A DNA stretch of 64,000 nt from Pseudomonadota bacterium (GTDB lineage Bacteria > Pseudomonadota > Gammaproteobacteria > Burkholderiales > JABEVD01): positions 9,308 through 73,307 of the forward strand of contig JAJZRS010000006.1 in NCBI GenBank assembly GCA_021802545.1, read 5' to 3'. The notes under the pieces were generated by a model that did no database searches, was not told the origin of the DNA, and saw only the letters and a program-made list of their open reading frames with translations. Shown piece after piece: positions 55,725 to 61,421 of the stretch. Made by a program: the position numbers and the translations under genes. Position 1 is the stretch's first letter; each line of letters starts with the position of its first letter.

Positions 55725-58616
55725 ATGAAATTCAAACCACATATGTGGGTCATTGTCTTAATCCTCCTCTCCACTTGTACGCAGGCAGCCGTCCTGCGCG
55801 TCGTAACCGATGACAATTATCCCCCATACCTTTATCGCAACCCTGAAGGCAAAATCCAGGGTTACGAAGTCGACATATGGAAGTTGTGGGAGCAGAAAAC
55901 CGGCATCAAAGTAGATCTCATGGCGACGCAATGGGCGGATGCGCAACGCAGGCTGCTGGATGGAAAAGCTGATGTCATTGACATGATATTTCGTACACCT
56001 GAACGAGAAATTCTCTATGACTTTTCAAAACCTTATGTGAAGCAATCGGTGGCTATATATGTGGATGCGTCGATTTCGGGAATACATAATATTGACGACC
56101 TGAAAGGTTTTCAGATCGGCGTCGAAGCGGGCGATGCATGCGTCGAAAAACTACATGATTCGGGGGTGCTCGATCTGCGCCTTTACGATAATTATTCCGA
56201 CATGATTGAGAGTGCATCGCGGCAACAGATCAAGATGTTTTGCCTGGACGAAAAACCAGCTAATTACTACCTTTACAAACTCAACCTCTATGAAAAATTC
56301 AACAAGGCATTCGTGCTCTATCAGGCCTCCTTTCACCAGGCCGTGAAAAAAGGAAATTCTGCGGAATTGCGGCTTGTCGAGCAGGGAATGCAAGAAATCA
56401 CTTCCCAGGAAAAGGATGCGTTGAAAAAGAAATGGTATGGCGAAGCCTATCCTCAATTCAAGCATTCAAAAATTCTCGCCGAACTTTTGACCGGCTTGAT
56501 TTTGCTGCTCGCGGCGTCGATGGTATGGCTAAAATCGCTGCGCAGCGCTGTACGATCAAGGACGTCAGAATTGGAGCAGGAACGCGCTCAGCTTCGCACG
56601 CTGGTCGAAAGCAGTCCGGACTTGATCTGGTTGAAAAACGAGGAAGGGGTCTATCTGACATGCAATCAAAAGGCAGCGCTGATGCTCGGCAAGACTCCTC
56701 AGGAAGTCATCGGCAAGACAGATGCTGATTTGATGGATCAGAATATTGCAGACCAACTCAGGAAAGACGATCTGCGAGCGATTCAATCCGGCCAGCTGGT
56801 TTCGGTTGAAGAATGGATGCCTGCCACAGATGGAACCCCCCGCTTGCTTGAGACAGTCAAGTTGCCAATCAGGGGATCAGCGGGAAATTTCATAGGCGTG
56901 CTTGGGGTAGCGCGCGACATCACGGAGCGCCGATCAAACGAGCGTGCATTGGCAAATCAAGCCAGTATGCTCAAGGAAATGAGCGGTTTGGCTCACATCG
57001 GAGCTTGGGAATTCGATCCGGTCACGGGAGACGGGACTTGGACAGAAGAGGTGGCGCTGATCCACGAGGTTGACACGACGGCCTCTACCAACATGTCCTT
57101 TGGTATGAGCTTCTATATTGGGGAGAGCCGGAAAGCCATTGAACAGGCAGTCGATGCCGCAATAACGAGCGGGGCCCCCTACGACCTGGAGCTTGAAATG
57201 GTCACAGCCAAGGGAAATCGCAAGTGGGTTCGTACCATCTGCCATCCTTTGATTGAAGAAGGGAAGGTGATACGGATTCGCGGGACGATTCAGGACATTA
57301 CTGAGCGAAAGCGTGTCGAGGCGCAAGTCGAACACTTGGCATTCCATGATCAGCTGACGAGGCTTCCCAATCGCAGATTGTTCCGCGACCGTCTCGAGCA
57401 GGACATGAAGCGCGTGATTAGAGACAAATCCTCTCTTGCGCTGCTGTTCATTGACCTGGACCGATTCAAGGAAGTGAACGATACGCTGGGGCATGACAAG
57501 GGCGACATTCTCCTTGTCGAGGCAGCAAGGCGGATCAGGCAACATGTGCGGGATTCGGACACCATCGCTCGACTCGGGGGGGATGAATTTGCCATCATTC
57601 TGCCTGACTATGGAGAGACATCGAACATCGATCGAGTTGTGAGGGAAGTGCTGCAAGCCCTCGAAATGCCGTTCGACTTGGGGGACAGGAATGTCGGCCA
57701 CATTTCCGGCAGCATCGGTATCGCCCTCTATCCCCACGAGGCCGAGAGCATCGATGATCTGTTGAGGCACGCTGATCAGGCAATGTATGCAGCAAAAAGT
57801 TCTGGAGCAAACCGTTTCAGCTATTTCACGCGGAAAATGCAGGATGAAGCTCGCAATAAGGTGTGTCTGACCAACGAACTTCGCCATGCACTGGAACTGA
57901 ATCAGCTCGAAGTGTATTTCCAGCCTATCGTGGATACCCGAAGCAGCGAAATCGTCAAGGCAGAGGCATTGCTGCGTTGGCATCATCCTGAACGTGGAGA
58001 CATCAGCCCTGTCATTTTTATTCCACTGGCAGAGGAGTCGGGGCTGATTCTGGAGATTGGCGATTGGGTGTTCAAGGAAGCCTTGAGAAACATCGCAACA
58101 TGGCAGAAAAATACCGGGAAACTGCTTCAGGTCAGCGTGAACAAGTCATCTGCACAATTCATGCGGGAAGATAAGCCACGCTGGCGGGAAAGTTACCTCA
58201 GATCGGGGCTGCCCGAGCACGTCGTCACGGTTGAAATTACCGAAAGCTTGTTGTTGTCCGATTCTGAAAGGGTAAGAAGTTCATTTGATTTTTTTAAGGA
58301 ACATGGCATCGAGCTGTCAATCGATGATTTCGGAACTGGTTTTTCAGCCCTTTCATACCTGCACCGCTTCGATGTCGATTACCTGAAAGTAGACAAGTCT
58401 TTCGTGCAGAAGATGACGACAGACGCCTCCAGCAGGGCATTGACCGAGGCAATCATCATCATGGCGCACAAGCTCAACATCAAGACGATCGCCGAAGGCG
58501 TTGAAACAGAAGAGCAGCGCGATCTGCTTAAAGCATTCGGCTGCGACTACCTGCAAGGTTTCCTTTTTTCCAAACCCGTTCCTGCGAGCGAATTCGAAAA
58601 AATGATTTGTGGATGA
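55725..58616 (+). CDS. Periplasmic SBP(family 3)-TM-PAS-PAS-GGDEF-EAL signalling protein
   Basis: The N-terminal solute-binding domain reads LRVVTDDNYPPYLYRNPEGKIQGYEVDIW. A TM helix and two PAS domains follow. GGDEF is intact (ARLGGDEFAI) and EAL is intact (AEALLRWHHP, EITE, DDFGTGFS, KVDKSF, EGVE, QG). ATG 55725 is preferred over the TTG at 55707. Confidence 0.9.
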   Translation: MKFKPHMWVIVLILLSTCTQAAVLRVVTDDNYPPYLYRNPEGKIQGYEVDIWKLWEQKTGIKVDLMATQWADAQRRLLDGKADVIDMIFRTPEREILYDFSKPYVKQSVAIYVDASISGIHNIDDLKGFQIGVEAGDACVEKLHDSGVLDLRLYDNYSDMIESASRQQIKMFCLDEKPANYYLYKLNLYEKFNKAFVLYQASFHQAVKKGNSAELRLVEQGMQEITSQEKDALKKKWYGEAYPQFKHSKILAELLTGLILLLAASMVWLKSLRSAVRSRTSELEQERAQLRTLVESSPDLIWLKNEEGVYLTCNQKAALMLGKTPQEVIGKTDADLMDQNIADQLRKDDLRAIQSGQLVSVEEWMPATDGTPRLLETVKLPIRGSAGNFIGVLGVARDITERRSNERALANQASMLKEMSGLAHIGAWEFDPVTGDGTWTEEVALIHEVDTTASTNMSFGMSFYIGESRKAIEQAVDAAITSGAPYDLELEMVTAKGNRKWVRTICHPLIEEGKVIRIRGTIQDITERKRVEAQVEHLAFHDQLTRLPNRRLFRDRLEQDMKRVIRDKSSLALLFIDLDRFKEVNDTLGHDKGDILLVEAARRIRQHVRDSDTIARLGGDEFAIILPDYGETSNIDRVVREVLQALEMPFDLGDRNVGHISGSIGIALYPHEAESIDDLLRHADQAMYAAKSSGANRFSYFTRKMQDEARNKVCLTNELRHALELNQLEVYFQPIVDTRSSEIVKAEALLRWHHPERGDISPVIFIPLAEESGLILEIGDWVFKEALRNIATWQKNTGKLLQVSVNKSSAQFMREDKPRWRESYLRSGLPEHVVTVEITESLLLSDSERVRSSFDFFKEHGIELSIDDFGTGFSALSYLHRFDVDYLKVDKSFVQKMTTDASSRALTEAIIIMAHKLNIKTIAEGVETEEQRDLLKAFGCDYLQGFLFSKPVPASEFEKMICG

Positions 58617-58716
58617 ACCAATGAAAACATCTGTTTTCTGATCTCAACTGTCAATTGCAATGTAGTTGGGGATCCTCTAACTGCTTTTCACGAGTTGCGG
58701 ATCGGGGTGAAACGAA

Positions 58717-58751
58717 AAAGGCGTGCAAATCATGCAAGCCTTTGTTTTATT
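58717..58751 (+). terminator. Rho-independent terminator (one mismatch in stem)
   Basis: The hairpin AAAGGCGTGCA-AATCA-TGCAAGCCTTT is followed by GTTTTATT. Confidence 0.55.
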
Positions 58752-58780
58752 TGGCTCCCCGACCTGGACTCGTGACCTGC
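58752..58780 (-). repeat. tRNA-Asn 3'-end fragment C (att-like direct repeat)
   Basis: TGGCTCCCCGACCTGGACTCG (21 nt) is identical to 61346-61366. GACCTGC follows, matching the tRNA after a 7-nt deletion. Confidence 0.8.
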
Positions 58781-58798
58781 CCCCAAAAGGGATACCTG

Positions 58799-58837
58799 AT
58801 GCAAGCCTTTGTTTTATTCGGCTCACCAACTTGAATG
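58799..58837 (-). repeat. Degenerate duplicate of terminator tail + tRNA fragment (67-bp offset from fragment C)
   Basis: ATGCAAGCCTTTGTTTTATT (58799-58818) is identical to 58732-58751. The following 19 nt match fragment C at 12 positions. Confidence 0.65.
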
Positions 58838-58892
58838 AATCAGTGTAACTGGATTTATACCATCGCAATTTGAATATGGTGTGCCTTGAGTT

Positions 58893-59204
58893 TTATTTGT
58901 CAGCAGCATACGTTGAATTTATTTTGGCATTAAATTCTTCTAGTGCCATTGATATAGGTTTTTCATTCTCAGCCAAACCCTTCAACGTGTTTTGACAAAA
59001 TTCGATTAGCGTAGATGTCGGGACAGTTACCTGAAAATTGATTTTACGTAGTTCCTTGCCAGACTTTTCATCTAGCCCAACGGTTGTTTGGATCTGTATC
59101 TTTGATACAGGAATACCAATCATAGCTGATAGCCCATCAGCATAAACTTGAGCAGCAGATGCCATAGACTCAGGTATTACAGAAACGATAGGGGGAGTGC
59201 TCAT
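58893..59204 (-). CDS. Hypothetical protein (103 aa), third gene of the AT-rich operon
   Basis: This intact ORF has a start that overlaps the upstream stop by 4 nt (ATGA). I recognise no family. The composition is strongly AT-rich compared with the rest of the window. Confidence 0.55.
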   Translation of the reverse strand: MSTPPIVSVIPESMASAAQVYADGLSAMIGIPVSKIQIQTTVGLDEKSGKELRKINFQVTVPTSTLIEFCQNTLKGLAENEKPISMALEEFNAKINSTYAADK

Positions 59205-59797
59205 CTCTTTATCCTTGTTGAGTTGTTATCTAGATAGTGTCTTTCATGTGTTGCTACACTCAATTCTGTCATGCTTCCACTTTCTGCAGAGGCTATCGGC
59301 AGTAACTCAATGTTTGTTCTAATGGAGAATGGTGACATAACAGAAATATAGAAAGGTTTATGGTTTCCATTAGTAATATCTTGCGCTACTTCATATGCTG
59401 ATTGCACATGCAATATCGGGAATGTGGTTGTTACTGTTTGAGTCGCATGAGGCGCATCCTTCCAATATGATGTACGTTCCTCAGTTATCTTTCGCGCTGA
59501 AATCACAGGCTCCATACCCATGCCGAGCAAAAGGTCGCTCACGGTATCTATAGTCCAATTGCCGGGTGATCCTAGCCAACGAGTGATTTGTTCAGGTTTT
59601 CGTTTAATTTTTCTAGCAAGTTTTGCACGACTCGTTTTGCCTGCGCGCTCTTGAGCTGCAAATTCCCTTAGCACAAGTTCGTGGAGTTTATTGCTAAAAC
59701 GTCCACGAAAATATGCCAACATTACAGTTGGAATCTCTTTGCCACTTTCTTCAGGCTCAGACGAGGTAGGTATTTGATATACAGGCTGGGTAGTCAT
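59201..59797 (-). CDS. HTH (XRE-like) protein with ~110-aa C-terminal domain of unknown function
   Basis: The segment TSRAKLARKIKRKPEQITRWLGSPGNWTIDTVSDLLLGMGME looks like an XRE-type helix-turn-helix. AGGAG precedes the ATG-ATG pair at 59800/59797. It overlaps the upstream gene by ~41 nt. Confidence 0.55.
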   Translation of the reverse strand: MTTQPVYQIPTSSEPEESGKEIPTVMLAYFRGRFSNKLHELVLREFAAQERAGKTSRAKLARKIKRKPEQITRWLGSPGNWTIDTVSDLLLGMGMEPVISARKITEERTSYWKDAPHATQTVTTTFPILHVQSAYEVAQDITNGNHKPFYISVMSPFSIRTNIELLPIASAESGSMTELSVATHERHYLDNNSTRIKR

Positions 59798-60299
59798 CAT
59801 CGTCTCCTGATGATTTAGGTTCGTAGGTTGGGAGTAGTTTTTTCCACTCCGTTTTGCAGCCGACAATTGCATCCCTCCATGCTCTATCTGTAGGGCCTCC
59901 CAGGTCAGTTCTGTGCCACCAATTCAAAGCGATAAACACATCTCTATCAGCAAATCTTCCCAGTACTCGGATACTAGGCTTCGGGTCTCTGCTTCTAATT
60001 TCCCATACTTCCTCGCGAAATCGAAACAACTGCCTCATGTATGCGTTCTTGCCCCCAAGTAGAGGATGTTCTGCTATTGGAATTATCCCGCCTTGCATAA
60101 ACCGATCGAAATCGGCGCGCAGATAACCACATCGCTCTTCCCATTCTTCGTTATGCCATGGCCCAACAAGAAGAGAATAGATTTCCTCATTAACGTACAT
60201 CTGTCGAGGACTTGCTCCTTCGTCTGGCGCCATTATCGGTTGCAACAAATGAAGTCGCCCCTCTTGTACTCTATTTGTAATTTCAGCTGAAATTGACAT
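59757..60299 (-). CDS. Hypothetical protein (180 aa), possible RelE/Gp49-like toxin core with N-terminal extension
   Basis: The segment EVWEIRSRDPKPSIRVLGRFADRDVFIALNWWHR resembles the '..W E(L/I)R....yR(V/I)ly.f....vv.L..f.K' core of RelE/HigB/Gp49 toxins, but the similarity is weak. ATG 60299 is preferred over the TTG at 60308. Confidence 0.5.
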   Translation of the reverse strand: MSISAEITNRVQEGRLHLLQPIMAPDEGASPRQMYVNEEIYSLLVGPWHNEEWEERCGYLRADFDRFMQGGIIPIAEHPLLGGKNAYMRQLFRFREEVWEIRSRDPKPSIRVLGRFADRDVFIALNWWHRTDLGGPTDRAWRDAIVGCKTEWKKLLPTYEPKSSGDDDDYPACISNTYLV

Positions 60300-60521
60300 A
60301 TAAGTCAATATGTATGTTCGACATATGAATCAATATATTCGTTCTCGAATAGAATCAGTATCTCCCGTCTAAGTAACACGGGGGGCTACAAATACATTCC
60401 CAGCAAATCTATCCTCTTTCCCCTGTTCTGACAATGATCTAGACACATTCCATTTACGCAGCCGAGCACCGCACAGTAAGACAAAGGGGAAGTGAACGCT
60501 GGAGCGTAGGCGCCGAGAAAT

Positions 60522-60917
60522 CTAGCGGGGAGTTTCCTGCATGAACAACGAGCGCATGGAGCGAACGAATTCCTGCGCCTCCAGCACTGATCTGGCAGCA
60601 TCTTCGGGTTCAACGGAGTCACCTTTGTAATCGGCGATGAGACGAAGTTCCTCCGCCCGATTAAGCGCTTTTCCAAGTTCTATCGGCACGCGCTTCGTCT
60701 TGACGAGATTCAGGCTGAATGCGGTGATCAGGCCGTTGTGCGTTCTGGCGATTTCGGGTTGAACATTGGAACGCGATGTCAGCAAGGCTGCCCGGGCAGC
60801 GTCGAACATGGCGTAGTATGCCCGGTTGCAGGCGCCGTCGACATCCCCAGCTTCCAGCAGCAGTTTTGCGGACACAACTGCCTGGTCCGCTTTTGCCATC
60901 AAATCAGCGGCGTTCAC
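60522..60917 (-). CDS. HEPN domain protein (toxin of a HEPN/MNT pair)
   Basis: It is a helical protein with ..A...L.......D.A.NRAYYAMF.AA.A.L and ...THNGL..F. The GTG start overlaps the MNT gene stop (GTGA). Confidence 0.75.
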   Translation of the reverse strand: MNAADLMAKADQAVVSAKLLLEAGDVDGACNRAYYAMFDAARAALLTSRSNVQPEIARTHNGLITAFSLNLVKTKRVPIELGKALNRAEELRLIADYKGDSVEPEDAARSVLEAQEFVRSMRSLFMQETPR

Positions 60918-61261
60918 AGCCGAATGCCGTCACGGTCTATGTTTGCGAGCAGGCGGGGATTGGAATATGCATCCGGATGTACCCATTCCTGTTCCCAGAT
61001 CGGAAGGGGCTGGATGCGGATACCGGTTTCCAGAAGCACTTCATAGGCCAGGTCGCCCATGTCAAGCTTGGTCGACACGAAATTGCCGGGCTGCCCACGC
61101 AGGAGGACGGCCACGTCCGCATCGCTGTCTGGGCGGTGGGCTTTTCTTGCCCGGCTGCCGAAGAGGATGGCACCGGCGAAATCATAGCGATCCGAGACCA
61201 TTGCGATGAAGGAGCGGGTCGCGTTGATGGTTTCTGCGTCGATGTCAGCGAGAGAGCCCAT
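60914..61261 (-). CDS. Nucleotidyltransferase (MNT) domain protein (antitoxin of a HEPN/MNT pair)
   Basis: It has the LFGSRARKAHRPDSDADVAVLL GS-x10-DxD pol-beta signature. ATG 61261 is preferred over the TTG at 61297. Confidence 0.75.
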   Translation of the reverse strand: MGSLADIDAETINATRSFIAMVSDRYDFAGAILFGSRARKAHRPDSDADVAVLLRGQPGNFVSTKLDMGDLAYEVLLETGIRIQPLPIWEQEWVHPDAYSNPRLLANIDRDGIRL

Positions 61262-61268
61262 GCGTATA

Positions 61269-61297
61269 AGAATAGTAAGAGACTTTAGGAGTGTCAA
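61269..61297 (-). promoter_or_regulatory. Candidate promoter giving a (near-)leaderless MNT/HEPN transcript
   Basis: The minus strand has TTGACA (61297-61292), a 17-nt spacer and TATTCT (61274-61269). The ATG at 61261 lies only 7 nt downstream of the -10 element and has no SD sequence. Confidence 0.35.
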
Positions 61298-61302
61298 TGA
61301 AT

Positions 61303-61329
61303 CAAAAAAGCCCGGTCAGTAACCGGGCT
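61303..61329 (-). terminator. Rho-independent terminator of tRNA-Asn
   Basis: On the minus strand, the hairpin AGCCCGGT-TACTG-ACCGGGCT is followed by TTTTTT, 17 nt after the tRNA CCA end. Confidence 0.75.
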
Positions 61330-61345
61330 TTTCCTTCATCGATTC

Positions 61346-61421
61346 TGGCTCCCCGACCTGGACTCGAACCAGGGACCTGCGGATTAACAGTCCGTCGCTC
61401 TACCGACTGAGCTATCAGGGA
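61346..61421 (-). tRNA. tRNA-Asn (anticodon GTT)
   Basis: The 76-nt sequence is TCCCTGATAGCTCAGTCGGTAGAGCGACGGACTGTTAATCCGCAGGTCCCTGGTTCGAGTCCAGGTCGGGGAGCCA. It folds as a cloverleaf by eye with a 7-bp acceptor stem, anticodon loop CTGTTAA and an encoded CCA. It is very similar to E. coli tRNA-Asn. Confidence 0.95.

Follow-up and report, generated by a model that had tools for sequence, protein, structure and literature searches.

What might a compact operon of three overlapping genes be doing in a tRNA-associated island of a Pseudomonadota bacterium? The operon lies in a 64,000-nucleotide stretch of contig JAJZRS010000006.1 (assembly GCA_021802545.1, positions 9,308 to 73,307 of the forward strand), hereafter the window. 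An original prediction, made from the letters of the DNA alone, took it for a candidate toxin-antitoxin (TA) or defence module, in which a RelE/HigB/Gp49-like toxin (P1) is followed by a helix-turn-helix (HTH) protein (P2) and a third small protein (P3). Below, the layout, relatives, predicted folds and surroundings of this triad are examined, and the readings that they allow are weighed.

Layout and setting of the operon

Three overlapping ORFs are indeed found on the minus strand at the predicted positions (Table 1). The overlaps were described correctly as well: read directly in the sequence, P1 and P2 share 41 nt, and the stop of P2 and the start of P3 meet in an ATGA. P1 could alternatively begin at a TTG 9 nt upstream, giving 183 aa, and a second ATG of P2, at 59800, is preceded by a GGAG at a distance of 4-7 nt. 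All three are real genes, each with conserved homologues (at 90% identity, 66 clusters for P1, 125 for P2 and 12 for P3). The triad has the highest AT content in the window: GC is 0.435 at 59001-60000 and 0.458 at 58001-59000 against 0.49-0.63 in every other 1-kb window, and 200-nt windows give 0.36-0.475 in the cassette and 0.54-0.62 from 60400 onward. The original description, 'strongly' AT-rich, thus holds for the rank of the cassette and not for its degree; at ∼43% GC it is not extreme.

Table 1. Positions, within the window, of the operon and of the features around it
Feature	Positions	Strand	Description
P1	59757-60299	minus	180 aa from ATG; putative RelE/HigB-like toxin
P2	59201-59797	minus	198 aa; putative HTH antitoxin/autorepressor
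P3	58893-59204	minus	103 aa; third component of the triad
18-bp palindrome ATTGACTTATATGTCAAT	60292-60309	minus	overlaps the P1 ATG (60299-60297); candidate P2 operator
Degenerate second palindrome copy ATTGATTCATATGTCGAA	60317-60334	minus	25 bp upstream of the first; read from the sequence
MNT (60914-61297) and HEPN (60522-60917)	60522-61297	minus	neighbouring pair, outside the triad; Pfam
tRNA-Asn (GTT)	61346-61421	minus	integration target, proximal island boundary; ARAGORN; Rfam tRNA, 67.6 bits
21-nt exact direct repeat of the tRNA-Asn 3′ end	58752-58772		100% identical to 61346-61366; distal att-like boundary
Second, degenerate att-like copy	58799-58833		89% identical to 58732-58766; just downstream of P3

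The triad is held in an island of 2.6 kb between the two 21-nt repeats of the tRNA-Asn 3′ end. The predicted setting, a tRNA island beside a HEPN/MNT pair, was recovered in all its parts: the tRNA gene by ARAGORN, the repeats, and the Pfam domains (HEPN at E 2.3e-15, Polbeta and NTP_transf_2 at ∼1e-7). The HEPN/MNT genes have a GC of 0.55-0.62, unlike the triad, and triad loci elsewhere lack the pair. Within the island the triad is the tRNA-distal unit, and its designation as the 'newest cassette' is therefore not supported. The tRNA is the only known RNA family in the island, and no integrase is among the ORFs within it (58773-61345); in a strain variant (L004) an integrase-bearing element adjoins the island. 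A Methylophilus MAG (L001) carries the triad alone at a tRNA-Asn, between 88-nt repeats, and one further copy adjoins the S24 repressor of Synechococcus phage MinM1. Low GC, the tRNA-Asn att repeats and the phage copy together suggest that the triad is most likely horizontally acquired and mobile.

A general association with defence islands, which the original prediction had favoured, did not emerge: in 45 genomes the triad is flanked mostly by housekeeping genes. Searches of PADLOC-DB 2.0 gave no defence-system match for P1 or P3 and, for P2, a match at the level of the HTH only (PDC-M64C, E 6.5e-4). The same database returned nothing meaningful for 124 P1 relatives and ten third-gene representatives.

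P1 precedes P2 in 167 of 173 loci, in keeping with the toxin-first order that had been proposed. Virtually all loci examined show the expected co-occurrence of three genes, and they span several bacterial phyla and include at least one phage. Gene loss is lopsided: P1 is frameshifted or truncated beside an intact P2 in ∼15 of 121 non-redundant loci, some of these frameshifts coming from long-read MAGs in which assembly errors are possible, and P2 is missing beside an intact P1 at most once (L063). This asymmetry, with P1 lost far more often than P2, fits P1 as the toxin.

P1, P2 and the palindrome at the P1 start

The structural case for P1 begins with a confident AF2 model (pLDDT 91.6, pTM 0.89). 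When this model was compared with the PDB by Foldseek, its best matches were HigB chains from S. pneumoniae (6af4 and 6af3; probability 0.99), followed by HigB2, BrnT and ParE1. The best E-value is only 7e-3 and the target-normalised TM only 0.55-0.62. Profile searches point the same way from the side of the relatives, 16 of 124 of which match PF05973 (Gp49) below threshold, with a best E of 0.004 and 15-17 bits against a cutoff of 23.9; any other family is matched by two relatives at most. These weak matches fall on the central β-sheet region of P1, and no member of the family reaches the gathering score. P1 itself has no Pfam match at E ≤ 1 and none in NCBIfam, PADLOC or the PHROGs, hhalign of its family against phage N15 gp49 was negative, a BFVD fold search returned nothing significant, and a profile search of PDB sequences with the P1 alignment returned nothing.

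Taken together, the HigB fold matches and the recurrent PF05973 matches support the RelE/HigB/Gp49-like core that had been suspected in P1. This predicted core spans about residues 33-135, which leaves an N-terminal extension of ∼30-45 aa and not the ∼90 aa first supposed; a C-terminal helix and tail are also present. Five arginines (R102, R104, R111, R115 and R130) are invariant or near-invariant and lie on the predicted sheet. The family comprises 1240 clusters at 50% identity and is unannotated, with no Pfam model and with 'hypothetical protein' as its name in the annotated public records checked. On its sequence and model, we class P1 as a putative, diverged member of the RelE/ParE superfamily, of HigB/Gp49 type, with N- and C-terminal embellishments.

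The AF2 model of P2 is confident only at residues 24-100 and in a small element at 126-154. The first of these regions is the XRE-type HTH of the original prediction, upheld here by Foldseek matches to the antitoxins HicB3, HipB, HigA2 and S. pneumoniae HigA (probability 0.97-1.00, rmsd 1.7-2.7 Å over 60-70 residues). It also aligns to phage N15 gp48 (E 0.001) and has weak HTH-level matches in PADLOC and the PHROGs; the P2 of the window has no Pfam HTH match. What had been described as a C-terminal domain of ∼110 aa appears instead to be mostly disordered, with no folded domain: the ∼100-aa region holds a short conserved motif and a small β-α-β element, and the disorder of the rest is predicted from the model of the window P2 alone. 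Across the family the HTH is nearly invariant and the tail variable, and in nearly all relatives the HTH is followed by at least ∼45 aa of tail. P2 is thus a putative antitoxin and autorepressor, composed of an XRE HTH (residues ∼24-100) and a long tail.

A candidate binding site for P2 lies over the start codon of P1. The palindrome there has the consensus ATTGAC-N6-GTCAAT and is unique in the window, where none would be expected by chance. Among 122 non-redundant loci each of its positions is 84-100% conserved in flanks that are random, and ten loci carry a compensatory G-C to A-T change in both arms. It occurs in Alpha-, Beta-, Gamma- and 'Delta'-proteobacteria, in Binataceae, in a cyanophage and on a plasmid, including the copies in phage MinM1 and on the R. 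tropici plasmid. The degenerate second copy departs from the consensus at four positions and was therefore not listed by a search that allowed three mismatches. An RNA hairpin hiding the P1 start codon was also considered and rejected, the fold being no better than that of shuffled sequences (z = -0.03); the minimum-free-energy structure at the P1 start does not use the palindrome. The palindrome is probably the P2 operator. Being near-invariant and placed over a start codon, it forces the P1 N-terminus to read Met-Ser-Ile, an unusually clear constraint of a cis-element on coding sequence. Searching for the palindrome is also an easy way to find members of the family and annotate them.

The third gene and its replacements

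The third position of the operon is filled wherever there is room. In 144 of 144 such loci a third gene abuts P2 on the same strand, most often overlapping it by 4 nt or starting only a few nucleotides away, and no bare P1-P2 locus was seen among them. The original prediction of a third small protein therefore stands as to the position, but P3 itself is not a fixed component. At least five unrelated families, between which no homology is detectable, fill the position: a ∼219-aa protein of unknown function, DUF6941, DUF3467, the P3-like proteins and a Cas2-like protein. In Methylophilus, Azospira and others the slot is taken by more distant relatives of P3 (∼100-107 aa).

P3 has no Pfam, PDB or PADLOC match, and NCBIfam and PHROG scans gave nothing usable for it or for P2. 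SecB (PF02556) was not matched by P3 or by any third-gene class at E ≤ 1-10, and profile searches of the PDB with P3 and third-gene alignments, the ∼219-aa class included, found nothing in a collection expected to hold SecB and Rv1957. The idea of P3 as a SecB-like protein was dropped after these profile searches. P3 as a diverged DUF3467 was likewise abandoned: the P3-like family and the DUF3467 class, which fills the third slot in five or six other loci, aligned in the expected register in hhalign at a probability of 0.3%, and neither P3 nor four P3-like relatives matched DUF3467 (PF11950) in Pfam at E ≤ 10. A recognisable DNA-binding or enzymatic domain was not found in any third-gene class.

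The third gene and the tail of P2 vary together. The tail changes whenever the third-gene class changes, and distal tails are never common to loci of different class, bar one fused outlier. P1, the P2 HTH and the operator palindrome are conserved whatever that class may be. One natural fusion joins P2 to a DUF6941 domain; the locus that contains it is decaying, and its P1 is frameshifted. A second apparent fusion, of P2 and P3 (P0096), proved to be only an over-extended N-terminus. Within the classes, distal tails carry no class-specific motif, their scores equalling the shuffled background, and a specific contact between tail and partner is for that reason not demonstrated. Where P1 has decayed, the third gene is intact.

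Readings of the operon and known systems

Our best reading is that of a HigBA-like module that would need a swappable third partner, which resembles the toxin-antitoxin-chaperone (TAC) systems and is not one of them. On sequence and models together, we judge with middling confidence that the three genes form a TA-like module of three parts, autoregulated and horizontally mobile. P1 would most likely act as an mRNA interferase. The conservation of ATTGAC-N6-GTCAAT over its start codon suggests that a dimer of the P2 XRE HTH binds there, and P1 may be neutralised by the short motif after the HTH, by the disordered tail of P2, or by both. The weakest step concerns P3, which would be translationally coupled to P2 and might work through the variable tail, either stabilising the antitoxin or sensing a trigger, like SecB in TAC. 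Other lineages would exchange the third gene and the P2 tail together, among unrelated protein families. A broader proposal is more doubtful, and we offer it tentatively: the triad may generalise the TAC principle, with one chassis of toxin, antitoxin and operator receiving interchangeable third proteins of unrelated folds, exchanged along with the P2 tail, that act as stabilisers or sensors and so set the trigger of the toxin, for example to different phage proteins.

The same observations could be read more simply, as an ordinary two-gene HigBA/Gp49-type pair whose third gene is cargo without a part in toxin control. At least five mutually unrelated third-gene families, distal tails without a class-specific motif, and a P1, HTH and operator indifferent to third-gene class all agree with this. 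We nonetheless consider it unlikely, because the third gene is there, usually tightly spaced to P2, in each of the loci with room, the P2 tail switches with its class, and a cargo slot that is never empty would be unusual. That the third protein is a co-repressor or enhancer or a second antitoxin (PaaR2- or PasC-like), or the real effector under the control of P1-P2, seems to us quite unlikely. There are established TA systems whose third component is regulatory, and both the translational coupling to P2 and the survival of the third gene beside decayed P1 would suit such a role. However, P2 already has a conserved HTH with a matching conserved candidate operator, domains for DNA binding or enzymatic activity are not recognisable in any of the third-gene classes, and one co-repressor role is hard to picture for unrelated folds.

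It is very improbable, finally, that the operon is no TA system at all and instead serves mobile elements as a non-toxic module, regulatory or accessory, for example IS1-linked or concerned with prophage immunity. What invites the thought is an IS1-family transposase that lies divergently upstream, across a conserved intergenic region, in ∼27 of 114 loci, together with the copy beside the phage S24 repressor and fold evidence for P1 that is only moderate. Yet the transposase is absent from the window and from most loci, and no inverted repeats enclosing it and the triad were found, so that a single transposon of both was set aside. Moreover, decay specific to P1 beside an intact P2 fits a toxic P1, and type II TA operons typically have this architecture and such overlaps.

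If the three-part TA reading is right, a family of 1240 unannotated clusters becomes a new tripartite branch of the RelE/ParE toxin-antitoxin systems, and DUF6941, DUF3467 and two unnamed protein families gain a functional context. The polymorphic third slot would be a natural experiment on accessory control of antitoxin stability or on trigger sensing, extending the modularity recently shown for SecB-based TAC. A literature search on DUF3467, DUF6941, PF11950, PF22091 and non-SecB TAC-like systems found nothing relevant, and a three-part module of this kind is most likely previously undescribed.

Among known systems, the Gp49/HTH pairs (HigBA-type, tad-ata and phage N15 gp49-gp48; PF05973) share with the triad the position of the (putative) toxin ahead of an XRE HTH partner and, probably, a RelE-like core, and the likeness extends to profiles, both in the PF05973 matches of P1 relatives and in the match of the P2 HTH to N15 gp48. 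They differ in that the P1 family stays below the Pfam gathering score and fails to align with N15 gp49 in hhalign, and in that the triad adds N- and C-terminal extras on P1, a long P2 tail predicted to be mostly disordered and an obligatory third gene. In other tripartite TA operons, such as paaR2-paaA2-parE2 and pasABC, the third component is regulatory. HipBST is also a tripartite TA system (PMC10627512). All three resemble the triad in setting a toxin, of RelE/ParE or other type, with two more proteins in one operon; in contrast to the triad, their third protein is a defined regulator, enhancer or split-off domain of one family. To our knowledge, neither a polymorphic third slot nor the triad operator is present in any of them.

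TAC systems (M. tuberculosis HigB1-HigA1-SecB(TA), Rv1955-1957; E. coli HigBAC) have the same gene order as the triad. Their toxin is a HigB of the gp49 family, their antitoxin joins an HTH to a C-terminal chaperone-addiction (ChAD) extension whose sequence is not conserved, and their third protein can sense phage proteins (PMC5105189, PMC11980606, bioRxiv 10.1101/2024.02.24.581848). The triad is alike in its putative gp49/HigB-branch toxin, its putative XRE HTH antitoxin with a C-terminal tail of variable sequence and its small, probably co-transcribed third protein. It departs from TAC in that P1 is ∼60-70 aa longer than HigB toxins and below the Pfam threshold, and in that no class of third gene resembles SecB. 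TAC combines one chaperone family with different TA cores, whereas the triad combines one TA core with different families of third protein.

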